Assembly: GCA_963663865.1 (NCBI GenBank)
Contig: OY760686.1
Coordinates: 2,240,001 to 2,304,000, forward strand
From: Spirochaetota bacterium
GTDB taxonomy: Bacteria; Spirochaetota; UBA4802; UBA5550
Reading direction: 5' to 3'
DNA length: 64,000 bases
Shown here: positions 42,143-52,323 of the stretch, piece after piece
Layout: every line of letters begins with the position of its first letter
Numbering within the stretch: the first letter of the stretch is position 1
Program-made: the position numbers and the translations under genes
Notes under the pieces: model-generated
The model's input: the letters and a program-made list of their open reading frames with translations, nothing else
Databases searched by the model: none
Told to the model about the DNA's origin: nothing

Positions 42143-43117
42143 TTATGGCCTCAGCGCCGCGATGACCTCCCGAGCGACACGCTCACTGTAGCAGCCCGAG
42201 TTCCACCTGCCGGGGCTCCATCCCTTAAGAAATCTGTGGAAGTCCGCCCATGCAACACGGTACATACCCCTCCACTCCCCTTCAAGGGCATCCGCGTCGA
42301 TATCCCTTTTCCGCCGCGCAAGCTGATTTCTCAACTCATCAAAATAGAAGTTGAGGATATCGGCCTCCATTGCTTCGCACTCATCTTCCTGCAGACAGCT
42401 TCCGGCAAAGTATGCGAGGTCCTTCATGCCGCAGCCTCCTCCGGTGTACTGGAAATCAACCGCAGCAGCTTTCAGCCCGTCCTCCGAAAAGCAGAAGTTT
42501 TCAAGCTTCGCGTCTCCGTGCAGCACTGTTTTGAACCGGCAGCTCTGAAGCCTGCTGTCGATCGCGCGGGCCGCGTTTTTCAGCGGGCCGTCCGAAAGCG
42601 CCCTCAGCTCATCGGGCCTTGTATCGAGATGCCAATAGGTCCCGACGCTCCAGAGGCCCTCAGGCTTCCTGCCCATGAAGCAGGCGTGAAACGCAGCCAG
42701 CCATGAGATACAGGCCTTCATCTCCTTCCAGTTTACACTTCCCCGGCGCAGGGTATACCCGGCCTCGTTGAGGTCTTCAAGCACCATTATGAACTCATCG
42801 CCCTGCCAGTCCGAGGCGTAACAGGCGGGTACCCGGCACGCATCATCGCATGAGGACGCCCATTCACGGTAAAAGGCCATCTCAACCCTGTAGGATTTGA
42901 CTTTACGCTGATGTGAAAGTCCGGAACCACCGGAGGTTCTGCCCATTCCGGAAGGAAGCTGAACGTGTTTGACTATTACTGATTTTTGTTCAGAGCCGGT
43001 CAGGCCGCATCGAAAAATCCGGCCATAGCCGCCCCATAGCTCCTGGATTTCATCGATTTCAAAGAGGTCTTCTGGCCCTGTTGACTTTAGCAGAAGAGTG
43101 CGGAAGTGTTTGTTCAT
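42143..43117 (-). CDS. Choline/ecdysteroid kinase-like phosphotransferase
   Basis: HGDAKLENF and VDFQY catalytic motifs. Confidence 0.8.
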
Positions 43118-43202: not shown

Positions 43203-44294
43203 CTACAAAGGACTCCTTATATTATTAAGTGAAGGATTTTTACAATGCGTATAGATTGACGTAGTAGAAAGGTTCTTGTGGCCTAACAGCACCTGGATAT
43301 ATCGAATATCAATACCGTTTTCAAGAAGATGTGTAGCAAAACTATGCCTAAGGCTATGGCATGAGGCCTTTTTTTTGACTCCAGACCTGTAAAGGGCCAT
43401 CCTGAAAACCTGCTGGATTGTTCGCACAGTTAATTTCTTTTTATCATCAGAATGAAAGTTTGAAACAAACAGATAATCCATGGGCCCTTTGTGTTCAATG
43501 TATTCTTGAAGCTGTGATTTAAGAGATTCAGAAAAGATAGTTAACCTGTCTTTTTTCCCTTTTCCCTGATTTATCCTGATATTCAGGTTTTCCAGATTGA
43601 TGTCACCTGCCCTTAGATTCACAACCTCGGAAACTCTAAGCCCGGCAGAATATAATAGAGAAATCATTAGCCTGTGTTTTAGATTATTAATTGATTTAAT
43701 AATCTTCAGGACCTCGTTTCTTGTTAATATCTGCGGCAATCCCTTCTCTTTCTTTATCCCATTCATGAAAGAGATATCAATATCTCTGTGCAAGACTTCA
43801 CGAAAATAGAAGAGAAGCGCAAAGCGGTAAATTCTAATCGATGACACAGACACTTTTCTTGTATCAGTCAGATAAAGAAAATATTTATACATATCTGCAG
43901 AGGTAACAGATTCAATTGAAAGATTACATTGAGAATGAAAAAATCCGGCTATCTGAACAAGAGCACCGGAATAATTCTTTAGCGTTTTTGGACTATATCG
44001 TTTCAGCTTCATAAGCTCACAGAATCTGTCATAACCAGAAATCAGATTAGTTACCTGTCGGCGGTCAGGTATACCGGACGTTTTTGTAATGCCTATATCT
44101 TCCAGCATTTTATTGAAAATATAACGGCTTACATTATGGGAATTATAGTAATCCCGAATTAGTTCGATAAACCGGGTATTTTGAGTAATACTTTTACTCA
44201 CAAAAAAGCTGTAAATTTCGCTATTACTGATATACCTGAATGATTTATTGTATTCCCTTTCCATTTCAGTCAGCAGTTTCAAATATTCGTCCAT
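43203..44294 (-). CDS. Integron-associated tyrosine recombinase lacking the IntI-specific insertion
   Basis: SAM-like YSPKTLKNY, GLRVSE, GKGKKDR, HSLRHSFATHLLE, LGH, IYTH and IntI-like C-terminal RSPL; transcribed away from the cassette array. Confidence 0.9.
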   Translation of the reverse strand: MDEYLKLLTEMEREYNKSFRYISNSEIYSFFVSKSITQNTRFIELIRDYYNSHNVSRYIFNKMLEDIGITKTSGIPDRRQVTNLISGYDRFCELMKLKRYSPKTLKNYSGALVQIAGFFHSQCNLSIESVTSADMYKYFLYLTDTRKVSVSSIRIYRFALLFYFREVLHRDIDISFMNGIKKEKGLPQILTRNEVLKIIKSINNLKHRLMISLLYSAGLRVSEVVNLRAGDINLENLNIRINQGKGKKDRLTIFSESLKSQLQEYIEHKGPMDYLFVSNFHSDDKKKLTVRTIQQVFRMALYRSGVKKKASCHSLRHSFATHLLENGIDIRYIQVLLGHKNLSTTSIYTHCKNPSLNNIRSPL

Positions 44295-44417
44295 ATCTTA
44301 TCCTCCAACTTAAGCTTAACCGAATATTTTATGCAGTTTGTCTTACTTTTTTGAATTATTTACGAATATTAATTGATTTTTATATATTTTTAAGCTGAGA
44401 ATGTTAAATGAAATTTT

Positions 44418-44443
44418 TGTGCAGACAATGATAGTTGTGCGCA
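44418..44443 (+). other. attI-like site; core GTTGTGC at 44434
   Basis: First cassette starts GTTGTGCGCA, the reverse complement of its end TGCGCACAAC (45858-45867). No attC stem upstream; 140 bp from the integrase start. Confidence 0.75.
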
Positions 44444-44469
44444 ATTTTTAAAATAATATCAGGTGTACT

Positions 44470-45354
44470 ATGAGCAGAAAACCAGGAAGATATTATGTAC
44501 ATAGAGTTTCTAAAATTGGTGATGTACCTGTTGAAAAAATATTAGATTCTATTATTAATTCAACATACATTCACTATAATAGCTACAAGTTTGCTTTTAC
44601 GGGTACTATATTAGAAGAAGATTATATTTTTTCATTCTTAACTAAATATTATCCTGAAGATGAAGTAACTATCGTTGACGAGTCAACATCACATATTGAA
44701 CAGAAAAAACAAGAAATTAAAAATTTGGTTAAAGCTGTTTGTCCATTTATTTTTATACCGAAAAAATCAATAATTGCTCATTTACATGTATGGAATGAAA
44801 TTACACCAGAAAATTTTGCCAAAATATTTCCAGTGCTACATGATGTTAAGCATAACACTATGTTCAGTGAAATAGTCATTGAACCTATTGCTGATTTAGA
44901 AGCATTTCTTAATAAACTTACAAAGATGACAGAAATTTCAAAAATAAAATCACGAATATATCCGTCAAATCCTCATTATAGTAAATATTGGAAGCTCCTT
45001 GATGAGTATTTAAAAAAGAGAAATGTCCAAGAAATGAATCTTTCTGAAGAATCAAAACTGGGTGGTTTAAAAACCCCGTTAGTTGAGGCAACGCAAAAAA
45101 TTCTAGATAATGAAGACATCCATGACATAGAAGACCTAAATTTAATTGAAATAAGTGTAATCATGGCTACAGATGGGTATGGCAATTCTGAAATACAAGG
45201 AAAGATCGATGGAGTTGAAGAAGCTATTTTTACAAACAAGAGTAATTTTACCTTTTTATTTGAGAAAGAACCATCTCATGAATTATTATACAAGAAAGTC
45301 GAAAAAATAGTAAAAAGAATTGAAAAGGAAAGGGGACTTCTCAGTGATGAATAA
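44470..45354 (+). CDS. Cassette 1 gene A, DUF4747-like hypothetical protein
   Basis: 294 aa; PSNP and DGYG motifs recalled from DUF4747-like proteins (not verified). Confidence 0.55.
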   Translation: MSRKPGRYYVHRVSKIGDVPVEKILDSIINSTYIHYNSYKFAFTGTILEEDYIFSFLTKYYPEDEVTIVDESTSHIEQKKQEIKNLVKAVCPFIFIPKKSIIAHLHVWNEITPENFAKIFPVLHDVKHNTMFSEIVIEPIADLEAFLNKLTKMTEISKIKSRIYPSNPHYSKYWKLLDEYLKKRNVQEMNLSEESKLGGLKTPLVEATQKILDNEDIHDIEDLNLIEISVIMATDGYGNSEIQGKIDGVEEAIFTNKSNFTFLFEKEPSHELLYKKVEKIVKRIEKERGLLSDE

Positions 45355-45841
45355 TAAATTAATCCTCTTTTTTAGAGAATTTTTTTTATCATTTGATTTT
45401 ATTGTTTTTTTGATTTCGATGCTTGTTGTTATAATTAACAAATTAGACATTGAGTTTTTTGAAATATTTTACAGATTTATACTAACAGACAATAAAATAC
45501 TCTCAATTTCAATAATTGTTGTCTTCCATGTCTCAATATTATTTTATTGCATAAAGGCATACAATATGATTTTATTTCCCGATGATAAATTTAATAAGAT
45601 ATTAATTGAATTTGAGTTTTACGATGAATTAAAAATTACAGCATTGGTTTCTATACTAGAACCAGTGATTGCAATATTGATTATGCTTTATTTGCTGATT
45701 TTTGATCTTCAAACAATTATAACAAATAAAGCTATTTTGATCCTTGGGTTAGTATTTTATTCTTTGGTAGACTCAATTACTACTTTTTTTGCACAAAATA
45801 AAATTAAAGAATCACTTTATAAATTTGATCCATATGAATAA
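45347..45841 (+). CDS. Cassette 1 gene B, 4-TM membrane protein
   Basis: Four hydrophobic segments; ATGAATAA overlap with gene A. Confidence 0.75.
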   Translation: MNNKLILFFREFFLSFDFIVFLISMLVVIINKLDIEFFEIFYRFILTDNKILSISIIVVFHVSILFYCIKAYNMILFPDDKFNKILIEFEFYDELKITALVSILEPVIAILIMLYLLIFDLQTIITNKAILILGLVFYSLVDSITTFFAQNKIKESLYKFDPYE

Positions 45842-45860
45842 CATAACTTTTAAAAACTGC

Positions 45861-46021
45861 GCACAACAAATCGTAACAGCTCCGGTCCTCAAGCAGCAGA
45901 GCTGCTTTCCGGTCCTCGGCCTGACGGCACATTGCATTTTGTCACGGATTTGTGCGTTCGCACAAACCGCGCCAACTGGCTAAAGCCAGACATGCAACGT
46001 CAGTTACGATAAACGTTATAT
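45861..46021 (+). repeat. attC-like site 1 (161 bp)
   Basis: GCACAAC...ATCGTAAC/GTTACGAT...GTTATAT. Confidence 0.88.
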
Positions 46022-46045
46022 GAAAGACGGGCTAAATTTATTAAG

Positions 46046-46669
46046 GTGTACACAATGAATGATGGTATAAAAGCATTCTATGATGCAACTGCGAAATTTA
46101 CAGCAGATGAATGGTATCCTAACGATTTATTATTGCCAACCATTGCTGATTTTATTTCTGTATTAACAAAAAAACCGTTGGTGCTTGATCTTGGATGTGG
46201 TCCTGGACATGAAAGTAAAAGATTATCAAAGGCTGGTGCAATTGTCACAGGAATAGATTTTAGTGAAGAATGTATTGATATAGCGAAGCAGAGAAGCCCA
46301 GAGTGTAATTTTGTAGTAGGGGATATCAGATCTCTGACTAAAGATATTGGAATTTTTGATGGGATATTTGCTTGTGCATCATTGATACATTTTCCTATGG
46401 ACGAATTATCATTCGTTTTTAAAAGCATTAATGCTATTCTTAAATATAATGGTTATTTAAACATAATAATATTAGATGGTGAAGGAGTAAGTAAAAAGTA
46501 TAGTAATTTAGAATTTGAAGGTAAAAAATATAATAGAACCGTATATCTTTATAGTAAAGATTTTATTATAAATGAGGCTGTGCAACAAGGTTTTTCATTT
46601 GTTCGTGAAGGATTTCTTGAAGAAGAATTGAAGGAATATGACTGGAGAAATTATTTATTTAAAAAATAA
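46046..46669 (+). CDS. Cassette 2, class I SAM-dependent methyltransferase
   Basis: VLDLGCGPG and FDGIFACASLIH motifs. Confidence 0.9.
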   Translation: MYTMNDGIKAFYDATAKFTADEWYPNDLLLPTIADFISVLTKKPLVLDLGCGPGHESKRLSKAGAIVTGIDFSEECIDIAKQRSPECNFVVGDIRSLTKDIGIFDGIFACASLIHFPMDELSFVFKSINAILKYNGYLNIIILDGEGVSKKYSNLEFEGKKYNRTVYLYSKDFIINEAVQQGFSFVREGFLEEELKEYDWRNYLFKK

Positions 46670-46692
46670 TTTATTCTATTAGCCCGTCCTTC

Positions 46693-46790
46693 ATATAACA
46701 AAGCTTATGCGCTTCACTCGCTTTCGCTCGTTCGGGCTTCGCCAAATCGCGCAAAAGGCCGCGCAACGTCGTTTAGCCAAGACGTTAGGC
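46693..46790 (+). repeat. attC-like site 2 (98 bp)
   Basis: ATATAAC...GTTAGGC; near-identical to 3249-3346 in the opposite orientation. Confidence 0.9.
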
Positions 46791-46818
46791 GACATGACGC
46801 ACTTTAATTATTGGAGGT

Positions 46819-47748
46819 ATGAACTTGTCACTTTTAAGGGATATTCAAGATGCAGCAATAAATTCTGGAATTGAAATTTCAACTGTTTTGCGCAAGTGTA
46901 AAGTTCTATCTGCCCGACTTGGCAATAGTGAATTTAAAAGATGGGTTGATCAAGAATTGAATGGTTACGAAAGTATCGATGATTTACCAAGTTATCGTAT
47001 TTTAACTGTCCAATCAAAAGGACATTTCTCAGGCCCCTTTGGTAGTGGCATAAAGAATGGTGATATACCCTTAATCTGCTTACCTAAAGAATTAAGAGAA
47101 TCTTTAAGCAAAGCTTATTGTACTCAACCAATTTCAGCCTATGAAGCATTAATAAAATCATCAAAAGGCGATAATTTTCAAGAACAATGGCCACCCGATT
47201 TAGTTGCATTATATGGTGGTGAAATTTATCAGAACATGAGCTGCATGACAGCATGGAAAACAATTCCTTATGGATTAATAGTTGCATTAATTGATACTGT
47301 TAGAAATCGAGTTTTGAATTTTGTAATAGAACTAGAATCTGAATCACCTGATGCAGGTGAATCACCAATCAATAAACCATCAATATCACGGGATAAAATT
47401 GCACATGTTTTCAATACTACCATATATGGAAATGTCGGAAATATTGCAGATGGAAGCTCAAATATAAATCAAACTGCAACATTAAATGTTCACAAAGATG
47501 ATCTTTCAAGTTTAAGGACAGAACTAGGAAAACTTGGGATACCTCAAGCAGAACTTGATGAATTAGAAATATCAATCAAAGCTGATGATAAAAAAGAAGT
47601 AATAAAAAATAAAAATCTTGGTTTACAAGTTACTAATTGGCTTGGTGGATTATTTACTAAATCGGCCAAAGGAGTTATTCCTGTACTTCAGGGACTAACT
47701 GCAAATATGATTACAAAAGCTTTATTTTTATATTATGGAATTGAATGA
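46819..47748 (+). CDS. Cassette 3, AbiTii-like domain protein
   Basis: N-terminal LLRDIQDAAI..ISTVLRKCKVLSARL...WVDQELNGY..LPSYR matches the AbiTii-like pattern. Confidence 0.75.
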   Translation: MNLSLLRDIQDAAINSGIEISTVLRKCKVLSARLGNSEFKRWVDQELNGYESIDDLPSYRILTVQSKGHFSGPFGSGIKNGDIPLICLPKELRESLSKAYCTQPISAYEALIKSSKGDNFQEQWPPDLVALYGGEIYQNMSCMTAWKTIPYGLIVALIDTVRNRVLNFVIELESESPDAGESPINKPSISRDKIAHVFNTTIYGNVGNIADGSSNINQTATLNVHKDDLSSLRTELGKLGIPQAELDELEISIKADDKKEVIKNKNLGLQVTNWLGGLFTKSAKGVIPVLQGLTANMITKALFLYYGIE

Positions 47749-47761
47749 AGTGCGTCACGTC

Positions 47762-47905
47762 GCCTAACACGGCGTCATGCGCTTCGTCGCTGCGCTCCTC
47801 GGCCTCCTCGGCCTCCGCGCCCAAGATATGAAGACGGGCGCTCCGGCACATTTTCACCTCCGCTGCGCTAAGGTGAAAACGTCGTATACGCCGGTGGCGT
47901 TATAT
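47762..47905 (+). repeat. attC-like site 3 (144 bp)
   Basis: GCCTAAC, CGGCGT(C)ATGCG/CGTATACGCCG stem with a bulged C, GTTATAT. Confidence 0.9.
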
Positions 47906-47987
47906 GAAATGCGGCTTAACAGATTTTAAAGATCCGGCCATCCATGGCCGGTTATAAATAAATCAACTCTATATTTAGAGGAAAATT

Positions 47988-48572
47988 ATGTCAAAAAATG
48001 AAATAATTATTAAGCTGTTATCAATGTTATTCGAAAGAAATGAAGCATATCACGATCAAAAAGAAAAAATGATTCATGCTGGAGTTTTAATCGAAATTGG
48101 TTTATTAACTGGAATCACATCCTTAAATAAACTTCCATTTGACTGTATTAGTTTAAATATTATAATATTTATTTTATTATGGCTTATCATTTATTCTTTC
48201 ATTCGATTCCATTCTCTTTATAAAAGAACTGCTGCAGTTTATCGTATAGCATATGAACGAGCTCTATGGTTGTGTTATAATGATTCACCAAAAAATAATA
48301 ATACTAAACTTAACAAGAAAAAAAATGAAAGTAAATTATCAAAGACAAAAATAATTCTATCGTTTCTATTCCCATTCTATAATGATAATTTGTTTTTAGA
48401 TTCAGATGTAACAAAAGCAGAACGTAATAATGCATATTATTCAAATTTCTTTTATGAAATTTTAGATAAATCAAGAAATGAACATGTTGGAGCAACTAAT
48501 TATGAAGTTATAATTTCCATAGGAAGTATAATAATTTTAATTATAGGAATAATAAAAATTGTATTATTTTAA
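47988..48572 (+). CDS. Cassette 4, hypothetical membrane protein
   Basis: GAGG RBS; two N-terminal and one C-terminal TM segments. Confidence 0.7.
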   Translation: MSKNEIIIKLLSMLFERNEAYHDQKEKMIHAGVLIEIGLLTGITSLNKLPFDCISLNIIIFILLWLIIYSFIRFHSLYKRTAAVYRIAYERALWLCYNDSPKNNNTKLNKKKNESKLSKTKIILSFLFPFYNDNLFLDSDVTKAERNNAYYSNFFYEILDKSRNEHVGATNYEVIISIGSIIILIIGIIKIVLF

Positions 48573-48642
48573 AATATTTTTCTTTAATATTAGCTCGTAC
48601 ATCCGTGTACTCGCTAACTATGTGCTACAAGCGCCGCACTTC

Positions 48643-48776
48643 ATATAACACGGCGTCATGCGCTTCGTCGCTGCGCTCCTCGGCCTCCGCGCCCACAATA
48701 TGAAGACGGGCGCTCTGGCACATTTTCACCTTCGCTGCGCTGCGGTGAAAACGTCGCATACGCCGGAACGTTATGC
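48643..48776 (+). repeat. attC-like site 4 (134 bp)
   Basis: ATATAAC...GTTATGC; near-identical to site 3. Confidence 0.9.
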
Positions 48777-48815
48777 GAAAGAGCCCGTTGAACTTTTTTA
48801 TAAAAGGAGACTAAT

Positions 48816-49439
48816 TTGAGTCAATATATAATTGTTGGGAATACAAGGTATTTTTGTGAGAAAACAATTGATTGCTACGAAAATCTTCTCCGCCTTGATA
48901 AACAGTTACATGAAGAAAAAGAACGAAAATCTCGCGATGACGCAATTTATGATGATTTCGAATTAAGTTTTAAGGAGGGACGATTAGCAAAGGATTTATT
49001 AAAAGAAAAGATGTCTATGATCGTTTTTGCTTCGTTTACGATTGAATCATATATTAACGGATACGCAATATACAGTCTAGGAAATAAATATTTTGAAGAT
49101 CATTTAGAAAAAATAAATATTAAAAATAAATGGATTGTATTTCCAAAACTAATTTGTGGTTCAGATTTTCCAAAAGACAAGAAAAGCTGGAATTTACTTG
49201 ATAAATTAATTGATAACAGAAATAAATTAGCACATGATAAACCAAAACGAATTAAGGTTGATGAAATTGATTCATTAAAAAGGAATACTAAAGTAAAACA
49301 TATTTCACCAAGTGAAATTATTGATGCTTTTTATGAACTACAGAAAGATTTAATCTCAATCGATGAAAGCATATCTGAATATTTAATGATTGATGGGTAT
49401 AATAATAAAAGGATTGAAAAATTAAAAAAATCTTCTTAA
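48816..49439 (+). CDS. Cassette 5, HEPN-like protein
   Basis: IESYIN helix and RNKLAH (RxxxxH) motif; AGGAG RBS with TTG start. Confidence 0.6.
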   Translation: MSQYIIVGNTRYFCEKTIDCYENLLRLDKQLHEEKERKSRDDAIYDDFELSFKEGRLAKDLLKEKMSMIVFASFTIESYINGYAIYSLGNKYFEDHLEKINIKNKWIVFPKLICGSDFPKDKKSWNLLDKLIDNRNKLAHDKPKRIKVDEIDSLKRNTKVKHISPSEIIDAFYELQKDLISIDESISEYLMIDGYNNKRIEKLKKSS

Positions 49440-49456
49440 TAATTACGGGCTCCATC

Positions 49457-49575
49457 GGACAACAAAGCTTACACGCTGCGTCGCTATCGGTCCTTGGCAC
49501 TCGCCTTGAGAAGCATGCTCGGCAAATTGGCTTCCCTTACGCTTCGCCGACTTCGTGTAGCCGCGGGCGTTAGGC
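49457..49575 (+). repeat. attC-like site 5 (119 bp)
   Basis: GGACAAC, GCT(T)ACACG/CGTGTAGC stem with a bulged T, GTTAGGC. Confidence 0.85.
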
Positions 49576-49596
49576 GCAATATCAATTGGAGAAGAA

Positions 49597-50097
49597 ATGA
49601 TTCGAGAAGCAATATTATCTGACTCAAATGTAATAGCTGAAATAATTGTAGAGACTTGGCAAAAATCGTTTATTAATATAATTGATCAGAATTACATAGA
49701 GAGCATGGATGTACAACGGTTTGTCAACATAATGAAGGATAATATACAATTGAATAAAGAAATTATATTTGTGTATGAGGAAAATGAAATAATTAAAGGT
49801 TTTATCTCAGGTAAAATCACAGAATATTCTGACCACCAGTGTGAAATAGTTGGTTTTTATATTTTGCCCAAGTATCAACGAATGGGGATTGGCAAAATAT
49901 TATTTCAACAAATTATAGAATATTTTTCTAGGCATAATTATAAAAAAATGATTCTTTGGACTTTGAATAGTGCAAAAAATAATTCATTCTATAAGAATAA
50001 TGGTGGAGAAATTACTGATAAAAAAATATTGGAGATTGGTGGTAAGACGTACGATGGAATAGGATTTTCATTTAATCTTCCCCCTATTTCCAATTGA
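49597..50097 (+). CDS. Cassette 6, GNAT acetyltransferase
   Basis: YILPKYQRMGIGKILF acetyl-CoA motif and FYKNNGG. Confidence 0.9.
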   Translation: MIREAILSDSNVIAEIIVETWQKSFINIIDQNYIESMDVQRFVNIMKDNIQLNKEIIFVYEENEIIKGFISGKITEYSDHQCEIVGFYILPKYQRMGIGKILFQQIIEYFSRHNYKKMILWTLNSAKNNSFYKNNGGEITDKKILEIGGKTYDGIGFSFNLPPISN

Positions 50098-50103
50098 TAC
50101 AGC

Positions 50104-50183
50104 GCCTAACAGAGAATAGGCGTTTCCGCTTCGCTTAACCCAAATTGGCCTGTGGCCAACTTCGTTTAGCCAGGACGTTATAC
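50104..50183 (+). repeat. attC-like site 6 (80 bp)
   Basis: GCCTAAC...TTGGCC hairpin...CGTTTAGCCAGGAC-GTTATAC; 3' part matches site 2. Confidence 0.8.
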
Positions 50184-50234
50184 GAAATCCGGCAAAACTT
50201 AATTGTGGCACTTTTAACAGAAAAAGGGAACTAA

Positions 50235-50843
50235 ATGAAAGCAAGTGTAATTTTAGCACATCCATACTCTCAGAGCTTCAATCATGCAATATATCAGGCA
50301 GTATGCTCAAAACTTGAGAGTCTGAATATTGAAGTATTTAAACATGATCTATATCAGGAACAATTTAGTCCTATACTTACCGTTGAAGAATTAGGATCGG
50401 ATACTTCAACCGATATTCTTGTAAATCAATATGCATCAGAATTAATGGAATCAACCTTTATTTTTTTTATTCATCCAAATTGGTGGGGACAACCTCCTGC
50501 AATTTTAAAAGGCTATATTGACCGCGTAATTCGTCCACCATATTCATATGATTTCCCAACCGGAGATTCCGGAGGTGGTCTTCCTGTCGGAAAATTGAAA
50601 GGGAAATATGGTATTGTTTTAAATACATCTAATACTGAAGAGGAAAGAGAAAATAATTACTTTAACGATCCGTTGGAAAATATATGGAAACAATGTGTTT
50701 TTGGGTTCTGCGGAATAGAAAAATATTATAGAAAAATGCTTCGAATTATAGCTGATAGCACTTTGGAACAAAGAAATAAATGGATTATAGAAATTAAAGA
50801 AGTAGTTGAAAATGTTATCGGTAATTCGCTGGACATCGCATAA
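50235..50843 (+). CDS. Cassette 7, NAD(P)H dehydrogenase (quinone), flavodoxin-like
   Basis: LAHPYSQSFNHAI and HPNWWGQPPAILKGYIDRV motifs; stop codon lies within R''. Confidence 0.88.
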   Translation: MKASVILAHPYSQSFNHAIYQAVCSKLESLNIEVFKHDLYQEQFSPILTVEELGSDTSTDILVNQYASELMESTFIFFIHPNWWGQPPAILKGYIDRVIRPPYSYDFPTGDSGGGLPVGKLKGKYGIVLNTSNTEEERENNYFNDPLENIWKQCVFGFCGIEKYYRKMLRIIADSTLEQRNKWIIEIKEVVENVIGNSLDIA

Positions 50844-50915
50844 CTAGGGATATATTCGACGGCTTCGCCACATTTTTGTGTTGCAAAAACTGATCATATA
50901 CCTGAAACTTTATAG
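50838..50915 (+). repeat. Degenerate attC-like site 7
   Basis: GCATAAC...GGCTTCGCCACATT...AAAC-TTTATAG (GTT core apparently mutated to TTT). Confidence 0.6.
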
Positions 50916-51108
50916 TCAAATGCCCAGCCCCCGTCGGAATGAAATATATTGAAAAACAACTGTCATTCATGCCAGTTGAAACTTAAAGTATTGTTCAGAT
51001 TAAAGAAAGTGACGTTTAAGTGAATATATTAACCTTATTGTGGAATGAATTTTTAATAATTTGTTGATCAACGGCAATGAAAATGCAATTTTATAAAGGA
51101 GGAAAGGT

Positions 51109-51588
51109 ATGTTGAAAATAATCGCTATGGTCGCTTTGCTAATCATGATTTCGGGGCTTTTGATTGCTGGAGATACCGTTGTTAAGGATAACGGCAAGCA
51201 GCCATGGGTGGTCGACATCGAAGATCTGACAGAAAAAAATGAAAATTTCCGTACCTCTCAGTGGACAGGTCGGAACCTTCAGATGACCGTCATGTCGCTT
51301 AAGCCGGGTGAGGAAATAGGATTAGAAAAGCATGACAAGAACGATCAGTTCATCCGTGTTGAAAAAGGGAATGCCCGTGTTGTTATGGGCGTGTCGAAAG
51401 ATAAAATGACTTTCGACAAAAGAGTTTCAGATGACTGGGCTATTTTTATCCCAAGCGGTTTCTGGCACAATATTACCAACGAAGGTGATAAACCGCTCAA
51501 GGTTTACGTTATTTACGCTCCACCAGAGCACCCCGCTGGAACATTGCACAAGACTTTCAAGGAATCGGAAGCTGCTCATGGTCATTGA
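51109..51588 (+). CDS. Cupin-domain protein with signal peptide
   Basis: MSLKPGEEIGLEKH..DQFIRVEKG, WHNITN and YAPPEHP motifs. Confidence 0.88.
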   Translation: MLKIIAMVALLIMISGLLIAGDTVVKDNGKQPWVVDIEDLTEKNENFRTSQWTGRNLQMTVMSLKPGEEIGLEKHDKNDQFIRVEKGNARVVMGVSKDKMTFDKRVSDDWAIFIPSGFWHNITNEGDKPLKVYVIYAPPEHPAGTLHKTFKESEAAHGH

Positions 51589-51681
51589 CCGTGGAGGAGT
51601 GAACAGCCATTGACAAAGGACTGCAAGTGATAAAAAAACGTTGCCCAATAAGGCTTTGTCGAGATTTTTGCGAAGGCAGAA

Positions 51682-51738
51682 TACCAACCAATCGACTACT
51701 CTGACCGCCCAACTCCGTATAGTCGTGAAATGTTGGAA
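51682..51738 (+). repeat. Short attC-like site candidate
   Basis: TACCAAC-caat-CGACTA...TAGTCG-tgaaat-GTTGGAA. Confidence 0.45.
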
Positions 51739-51842
51739 ATAGTCGCCAATGTTTTTTTGGGTAAGAAGAATCCTATACCGTGTCAGATAAAGAAAGAAAT
51801 ACTGCCATTTTTATGCTATAACAAACAATGATGTTGGTATAA

Positions 51843-52187
51843 ATGAAGATTCTCAATAAAGCCCCCTTTCAAAATATAATAGATTTTATTGATGTAACCG
51901 TGGACTCTGAAGATTTGATGAACTGGCTCGTTAAATTAGAATATTTACCCAATAATCTCCGCCATGATCATATTATCCGAATGAGACAACGAATGATAGA
52001 AAATGGAGAAGCGGAAATTTTGATTGATATTCTAAATTTGATTAATAATCGAGATATCTTATCCGCTATTAATCTTGTAGTGAAAGATGTTTATCATTCT
52101 TGTATTCGCAACGATCACACCAGCTTAATGGTCTTTTGTAAAAGATATGGGAAAAATGATCCGTTTTTAAATAATAGAGTAATTTAA
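51843..52187 (+). CDS. Hypothetical protein (possibly decayed cassette)
   Basis: ORF between attC-like remnants. Confidence 0.5.
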   Translation: MKILNKAPFQNIIDFIDVTVDSEDLMNWLVKLEYLPNNLRHDHIIRMRQRMIENGEAEILIDILNLINNRDILSAINLVVKDVYHSCIRNDHTSLMVFCKRYGKNDPFLNNRVI

Positions 52188-52225
52188 TGGTCATAGTGAA
52201 ATAATATAATAAGATCAATATCTTC

Positions 52226-52323
52226 GCACAACAAAGGTTGGCTGCTCCATCCTGGCGTTGTCGCAAAGCCGCATTGCGTCTTCGGCCTGAGTTTGCCACT
52301 CTTTTTTGAACACACAGTTAAGC
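52226..52323 (+). repeat. Degenerate attC-like site
   Basis: GCACAAC...TTCGGCCTGA...GTTAAGC with weak inner pairing. Confidence 0.45.

Follow-up and report, generated by a model that had tools for sequence, protein, structure and literature searches.

In integrons, promoterless cassettes form a one-directional array beside a divergent recombinase gene, and strand choice is tied to extrahelical bases and to the I2 helix of the integrase. By what route the integron integrase (IntI) became a recombinase of folded single strands, and what allows cassettes to be recognized without sequence conservation, are open questions on which the system described here may bear. This system is an integron-like array at positions 44434–50844 of a 64,000-nucleotide (nt) stretch (the window; positions 2,240,001 to 2,304,000 of contig OY760686.1, assembly GCA_963663865.1), part of the complete 3.16-Mb chromosome of a Spirochaetota bacterium. 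A recombinase gene on the minus strand diverges from seven co-directional, AT-rich cassettes. Each cassette carries long, cassette-specific complementary ends with a mismatch at one fixed position, and the recombinase lacks I2.

Most classical cassettes show self-pairing beyond the 7-nt boxes, over 9–11 nt in total, according to parts of Bouvier 2009 (PMC2727003), and sections of Ghaly et al. 2021 (PMC8352920) state the same extended pairing in general terms. A literature search, which did not cover supplements, found no description of long, wobble-marked cassette ends or of pairing beyond 9–11 nt, and likewise no paper on I2-less arrays in Spirochaetota or on a connection between attC and a wobble. 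The nearest published non-IntI analogue that we found is rAID-1 of gut Bacteroidales, in which a XerD-family recombinase accompanies integron-like intergenic repeats, as described in part of a preprint (10.1101/471110). Membership in rAID-1 is defined by a XerD-like recombinase that shares no less than 44% identity with the protein of B. fragilis and has the orientation described next. The rAID-1 recombinase lies 5' of the genes and is co-directional with them, and its cargo consists of immunity genes, whereas the gene here is divergent and so lacks the rAID-1 orientation. The part of the rAID-1 text compared gives no site structure, end pairing or wobble, and the two systems are compared by description only. 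Xer/dif resembles the present system in the length and domain order of the recombinase, but uses a single duplex site per replicon, with neither a cassette array nor a hairpin.

The resemblance to integrons extends to an attI-like leader, to GC-rich imperfect palindromes set between AAC and GTT, in part to their L pairing on the inner side and a spacer left unpaired, and to a cargo of defence-type and accessory genes. We regard the array as an integron-like store in which each cassette's own attC has an extended outer (R) arm that is divided into two halves, one at either end of the cassette. These halves would be rejoined only in the excised circle, where they would stabilize the hairpin and mark its bottom strand. 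We give this reading a probability of roughly 0.55.

Organization of the array and pairing of the cassette ends

GC-rich, imperfectly palindromic sites part the cassettes, each site starting after an AAC and stopping before the next GTT. The array and its immediate surroundings comprise the following features.

43203–44294, minus strand: tyrosine recombinase of 363 aa, Xer/IntI-like, without I2, with an extra N-terminal four-helix domain and a C-terminal SPL
44320–44433, plus strand: attI-like leader up to the first GTT, with homology to the leaders of two arrays elsewhere in the genome that have no recombinase gene
44434–45867, plus strand: cassette 1 body, two overlapping open reading frames (ORFs); arms 44434–44453 / 45848–45867, 19/20 matches, A/G at position 11
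45868–46014, plus strand: attC 1 inner part, GC-rich, with L-box pairing
46015–46699, plus strand: cassette 2 body, S-adenosylmethionine (SAM) methyltransferase; arms 46015–46035 / 46679–46699, 20/21 matches
46700–46783, plus strand: attC 2 inner part, L box weak
46784–47768, plus strand: cassette 3 body, AbiTii; arms 46784–46804 / 47748–47768, 20/21 matches
47769–47898, plus strand: attC 3 inner part, near-copy of attC 4
47899–48649, plus strand: cassette 4 body; arms 47899–47915 / 48633–48649, 16/17 matches
48650–48769, plus strand: attC 4 inner part, near-copy of attC 3
48770–49463, plus strand: cassette 5 body, HEPN-like; arms 48770–48788 / 49445–49463, 15/19 matches
49464–49568, plus strand: attC 5 inner part
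49569–50110, plus strand: cassette 6 body, GNAT acetyltransferase; arms 49569–49590 / 50089–50110, 20/22 matches
50111–50176, plus strand: attC 6 inner part, no clear L box
50177–50844, plus strand: cassette 7 body, flavodoxin-like NAD(P)H oxidoreductase; arms 50177–50196 / 50825–50844, 15/20 matches
50845–52316, plus strand: decayed array tail, with putative boundaries

Positions within the ends are counted from the G of GTT (position 1), and each cassette start is compared with the reverse complement of the cassette's own end. Start and end are complementary over 17–22 nt in all seven cassettes. An initial annotation of the window had assigned every cassette its own terminal inverted repeat of about 20 bp; its coordinates and match counts were reproduced, and the ends of cassette 7, described there as weaker, score 15/20. 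At positions 12–21 the cognate ends match at 9, 10, 10, 6, 8, 10 and 7 of 10 bases (cassettes 1 to 7), compared with a mean of 2.9 and a maximum of 7 of 10 when starts are set against non-cognate ends (42 pairs). From cassette to cassette, the sequences of the extension are unrelated.

Position 11 is mismatched in 7/7 cassettes and always in the same way, with an A at the start and a G in the reverse-complemented end. Read on the top strand, this pair is an A.C mismatch, whereas the bottom strand has a T.G wobble there. Cassettes 5–7 have a further mismatch at position 10 (A versus T). The mismatches had originally been described as clustering about 11–12 nt from the G; the location stands, but a fixed A/G at position 11 is more than a mere cluster.

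Pairs of GTT and AAC that lie 150–4000 nt apart and have at least 18/20 matches occur seven times in the whole genome: four belong to cassettes of this array, a fifth to a cassette of a second array, and the remaining two to one rRNA-operon repeat. We further defined a strict signature, consisting of at least 8/9 matches at positions 1–9, a mismatch at position 11, and at least 8/9 matches at positions 12–20. It is matched seven times per strand in the genome, by six cassettes, all with A/G, and by one unrelated pair with G/T. Ends of such length are thus essentially confined to cassettes genome-wide.

Comparison with classical integron cassettes

The starts and ends of classical integron cassettes are likewise complementary outward from GTT/AAC, in a cassette-specific manner and in the circle only. 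Positions 1–10 of the present ends are this usual R-box pairing; the unusual part is the fixed mismatch at position 11 together with the 6–15 further pairs (6–11 in this array), which make the end pairing about double that of classical cassettes. Unlike the classical helix, the helix here runs on to 16–26 nt with an invariant A/G mismatch at position 11, and the ends depart from the classical pattern of 9–11 consecutive nt in total. The initial statement that the ends far exceed a 7-bp core therefore holds for the positions from 11 outward, but the proper baseline is 9–11 nt in print and 8–14 nt as measured by us.

Contiguous end-pairing runs span 8–13 nt in class 1 cassettes on four plasmids (10 chained pairs), 9–14 nt in arrays beside 17 diverse IntI genes (64 pairs), and 8–12 nt in IntI arrays of the same phylum. 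At positions 12–21, IntI-adjacent chained pairs never exceed 6/10 matches (91 pairs, plus 172 in Treponema-like arrays). Cassette chains were defined by 8–9 contiguous matching end bases and include false pairs, above all in AT-rich Treponema-like DNA, which dilute both groups equally. Treponema-like IntI genes have no arrays on the divergent side, and their arrays lie on the other side. Around insertion-bearing IntI genes (61 loci, 804 kb, both strands), the strict signature with A/G polarity was found 0 times. The initial annotation had named equally long end complementarity in canonical cassettes as the observation that would count against it; with runs of 8–14 nt on the IntI side and no signature in these 804 kb, canonical cassettes do not show it. 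Detection of attC sites by minimum-energy folding, with GTT/AAC either forced or free, was noisy and gave wrong borders in the window, and no counts were taken from it.

Beside a canonical IntI gene (L072:117–143, G096), a 27-nt unit between two attC inner parts is made up of nothing but two mutually pairing arms, a start arm with GTT and an end arm with AAC, and could represent an "empty cassette" or a nested site.

The attC-like sites and in-silico folding

The window holds six full, imperfectly palindromic, attC-like sites bounded by RYYYAAC and GTTRRRY, and four more lie elsewhere in the genome. L-box pairing is seen in 8/10. The spacer between R and L is longer on the L'-R' side in all ten (4–7 nt versus 1–3 nt), which is the side opposite to that of the classical extrahelical bases as given in parts of Bouvier 2009 (PMC2727003). 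Single bulged bases on the L'' side were noted by eye in some sites. The inner parts of the sites are long and weakly paired.

In the array context, the end of one cassette and the start of the next pair over a run of only 3–5 nt, and four of the six window attCs are not closed at the R box in the minimum-energy fold. The circle form was built in silico by joining the cassette end, the attC and the cassette's own start, and was folded with DNA parameters. All eight sites validly computed fold as a hairpin closed by the full helix, in line with the initial proposal of an attC stem that, in the excised circle, continues beyond the R box and bears a positioned mismatch. Two entries for a further array (array A, see below), whose start coordinate was one base off, are left out of all counts. 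Since pairing in the array is limited to 3–5 nt and the joined circle closes the full helix, this helix exists only in the free cassette. The circle is more stable than the array form in 8/8 sites, by 2.9–19.3 kcal/mol (4.6–19.3 kcal/mol for the six window sites), and the bottom strand is more stable than the top strand in 7/8 circle-form sites. A different arrangement, in which a cassette's own ends would pair in the integrated state and draw on the L halves of the two neighbouring attCs, was rejected by eye, the L halves of neighbours being complementary only for the near-copies attC 3 and attC 4.

The recombinase

The recombinase aligns with VchIntIA (2a3v) in two blocks, between which 24 query residues stand against 63 in the chain, about 39 fewer at the I2 region. 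The distance between two catalytic-domain motifs is bimodal among 80 related loci (64–73 or 104–117 residues), and at about 69 residues the window recombinase falls into the short class. Its predicted structure contains no helix at residues 267–289. Alignment, motif distance and structure model therefore agree on a recombinase without I2, as had been suggested at the outset. The catalytic columns R, K, H, R, H and Y are kept. The protein is Xer-like, and its best match in the PDB is an archaeal XerC-like protein.

The recombinase scores 204.1 bits against the integron-integrase profile TIGR02249, the cut-off of which is 265, and no protein in the whole genome exceeds this cut-off. A quick maximum-likelihood tree of 78 rows groups the 38 I2-bearing ones in a single clade (support 100), and the window protein lies outside this clade in a nine-row Spirochaetota clade (support 99). 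None of the IntI characters examined (an I2 domain, a score above the TIGR02249 cut-off, membership in the IntI clade) is thus found in the window recombinase, and in these respects the array is unlike integrons in the sense of IntegronFinder. The system would work like an integron without an integrase of the defining kind, and its sites are attC-like with a different asymmetry. Variation of the insertion has a precedent in part of Smyshlyaev et al. (PMC8138268), where it is called "not fully conserved" in an integron-like recombinase subgroup.

An extra N-terminal domain of four helices (residues 1–66) is modelled with a predicted local distance difference test score (pLDDT) of 81–89. Ten orthologues from the family conserve this domain, which has no match in Pfam. 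We considered this domain as a reader of the extension and dropped the idea: the Marispirochaeta recombinase has no such domain, and six cassettes beside its gene carry the signature.

Distribution of the signature

The same architecture is found beside orthologous recombinases (41–51% identity) in six other genomes of the family, and in a Marispirochaeta record, a Nomurabacteria record and one metagenome-assembled genome (MAG) labelled Gammaproteobacteria. We compiled 31 cassettes, of which ten come from this genome, nine from the six family genomes, and 12 from the Marispirochaeta, Nomurabacteria and Gammaproteobacteria-labelled MAG records. The scans that gathered the cassettes of the relatives did not ask for position 11 to be mismatched. 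Of the compiled cassettes, 31/31 have A/G at position 11 and 10/31 have A/T at position 10. The compiled stems span 16–26 nt and consist of 9–10 pairs, the fixed mismatch, and then 6–15 more pairs; their other transition mismatches comprise 14 wobbles on the bottom strand versus five on the top strand. Positions 8 and 10–12 are conserved in sequence across the set. Two paralogous cassettes in one genome (G008) are 87% identical overall and differ at positions 4–10 on both arms, with pairing and extension kept. Both arms of these paralogues differ in their cores and still pair, which shows that complementarity is maintained.

With A/G polarity, the strict signature is matched 13 times in 4/36 insertion-less loci and six times in 4/6 loci of the recombinase's own family. 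Two of the own-family matches come from a contig that is also one of the four insertion-less loci, and one match pairs two paralogous cassettes. All signature matches are on the strand running away from the recombinase gene. Taken with the absence of the signature beside insertion-bearing genes, the signature follows the I2-less kind of recombinase. It can also serve as a search key for arrays that integron finders requiring I2 would miss or would report as integrase-less attC clusters.

Related arrays in the genome and public sequencing runs

Two further short arrays (A and B) lie at genome positions 979660–982230 (L168) and 638765–641100 (L169). Both have leaders homologous to 44320–44433 and no recombinase gene. 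A common element of about 170 nt, beside IS3/rve-like ORFs, is found upstream of both, and an insertion sequence may have replaced their recombinase gene. A search of the leaders of arrays A and B against Rfam gave no match. One cassette, the second in each case, occurs in both arrays (981437 and 640309); body and end are identical from position 10 onward, and positions 5–9 of the start differ. Cassette starts unmatched to their own ends share the recurring core GTTAAGT, and a core similar to it comes after the last attC of the window array (52317). Such an unmatched core may be the native attI core, retained through a shifted exchange point, although the sample is small.

Six public runs from three studies hold the array. 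We compared the contigs of four of these runs, which cover all three studies. The contigs break at the repeated attC 3/4, and the joints listed have short sides and lie inside genes. In one run (X4), a commoner variant contig covers 43707–44432, that is, the 5' end of the recombinase gene and the leader, with 12 differences and a depth of 53 versus about 7. It stops 2 nt before the attI G, as it should if the first cassette varies between strains, but it is only a contig end and hence a weak hint.

Proposed mechanism and alternatives

The reading that we prefer, an extended outer attC arm split between the cassette ends, would work as follows. The array would be served by a tyrosine recombinase that never had, or has lost, the I2 insertion. 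Insertion of a circle by crossover at or next to G|TT would cut the outer attC arm into the two cassette ends. Positions 1–10 would supply ordinary R-box pairing, and positions 2–12 would be read as the recombinase R arm bearing a strand-specific mark. This mark would be the fixed T.G wobble at position 11, which is 10 bp, or one turn of the helix, away from the presumed cleavage site; a second turn, made of cassette-specific pairs, would come from positions 12 to about 21. Within the array, the attC would be closed only by GTT/AAC and 0–2 further contiguous pairs. If excision proceeds as it does in integrons, the free cassette would be a circle, which may be single-stranded under the replicative model. 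Once excised, probably as a single strand, the circle would form the helix of about 21 bp in full, and the extension would make the site of the free cassette fold reliably around its large, poorly paired inner part. By analogy, the wobble may mark the substrate strand and the register, a role played in classical integrons by extrahelical bases read by I2. The data establish the anatomy of the ends, how specific and how conserved it is, and its tie to I2-less recombinases, whereas we infer the crossover point, the use of the bottom strand (which the polarity of the wobble favours) and any contact with the protein.

Several points weigh against this reading. The extensions of cassettes 4 and 7 are weak (6/10 and 7/10), and the start cores of the first cassette of array B and the second cassette of array A are unmatched to their own ends. 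Because of these two cores, a strict G|TT exchange with co-travelling arms does not fit. Cassette-specific sequence starts by position 4 in most cassettes, and the crossover point is read solely from this onset. The folding energies come from nearest-neighbour models of naked DNA. The stem lengths are biased upward, since 24/31 compiled cassettes, all of those outside the window, come from scans that demanded long pairing, and the taxon labels of MAGs may be wrong. Among the 36 I2-less loci, 32 are without the signature, and whether the flanks retrieved hold arrays was not established. In the contigs of the four public runs, the array was unchanged and no joint at cassette borders was found, which is not evidence of absence.

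The extension might instead be a pure thermodynamic clamp, which only stabilizes or insulates the hairpin of the single-stranded circle against AT-rich cargo and which, like the wobble, is not read by the recombinase. Unrelated extension sequences, the large energy gain in the circle context and the long, weakly paired inner parts are all what such a clamp predicts. A clamp, however, gains nothing from an invariant non-Watson-Crick pair of one polarity (31/31), and the sequence conservation of positions 8 and 10–12 is at odds with it, such that we find this explanation rather unlikely. The initial annotation proposed that the extension is a second recombinase-binding arm, replacing the role of I2 or of the L box. 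The recombinase indeed has no I2 and has a confidently modelled extra N-terminal helical domain, and the extension spans about one further helical turn. Yet no arm is missing, because inner L-box pairing is present in 8/10 attCs; the lack of conservation in the extension speaks against sequence-specific binding, and the Marispirochaeta recombinase is accompanied by six signature cassettes without having the domain. We therefore consider a second arm improbable. About as improbable is a by-product without a function of its own, in which the arms are made at cassette birth or grow by templated correction of quasi-palindromes in the circle. The arms of cassette 6 overlap the ribosome-binding site at the start and the last two codons and stop codon at the end, and perfect complementarity runs into both, as a by-product might; the unmatched, "swapped" cores of two cassettes resemble intermediates of such correction, and the G008 paralogues its completed products. 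Templated correction, however, should erase the mismatch at position 11, which is never erased, and this invariant mismatch argues against a purely templated origin in general; the origin of the arms as a trace of cassette genesis has no direct support. Moreover, the stems end within 16–26 nt, and the IntI arrays examined, in which these processes ought to operate as well, do not have the signature.

A Xer-like two-strand exchange on duplex DNA, with the conserved core to the right of the G as an overlap region flanked by arms, would suit the Xer-like recombinase. It might also explain why start cores of copies of the same cassette differ only at positions 5–9 (arrays A/B) or 4–10 (G008), as segregation of a heteroduplex might give. 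We regard it as very unlikely: positions 4–10 travel with the cassette and match its own end in 5/7 window cassettes and in most relatives, a 9-nt overlap would be unusually long, and a wobble on one strand points to a folded single strand. Terminal inverted repeats that flank each gene are also a feature of transposons and miniature inverted-repeat transposable elements (MITEs), and could act in RNA. There is, however, no transposase in the array and no target duplication at the borders; the repeats are all of the form GTT...AAC, abut attC-like sites and belong to a one-directional array beside a recombinase, and the fixed position, if read in sense RNA, would give an A.C mismatch and not a wobble. 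This last explanation is hardly credible.

The preferred reading can be carried further, although tentatively and with less confidence than we place in the reading itself. An I2-less lineage between Xer and IntI may choose strand and register by means of a helix of about two turns, split by integration, together with a bottom-strand G.T wobble one turn from the crossover. Positions 2–12 would then represent a dif-like half-site in hairpin form, the split helix would be a switch that favours free cassettes over integrated ones as substrates, and the arrays could be living intermediates in the origin of integrons from Xer/dif. Positions 2–12 may resemble the XerD arm of dif. An integron layout that combines the lack of I2 with a regular structural mark would offer an experimental handle on the recognition of hairpin DNA and on the transition from Xer to IntI.

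A search with a short motif gave one candidate dif site in this genome, at about 1902869 (minus strand), about 30 kb from the extremum of the cumulative GC skew. In its right arm, this candidate looks similar to the 11 nt that follow the G in some cassette starts.

Other features of the array

The near-identical attC 3 and attC 4 inner parts (47769–47898 and 48650–48769) belong to unrelated cassettes with unrelated arms, and it is here that the public assemblies break. The end arm of cassette 7 lies inside the ORF, with the stop codon in the AAC box. In the tail of the array, a truncated attC (35 nt) is followed by a possible eighth cassette (50880–52232), which contains a cupin ORF and another ORF and in which small deletions shorten the start arm. 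The last attC-like site (52233–52316) is followed by a GTT at 52317. On the array's opposite flank, an EcKL/APH-type kinase-like gene (42143–43117, minus strand) lies directly behind the recombinase gene.

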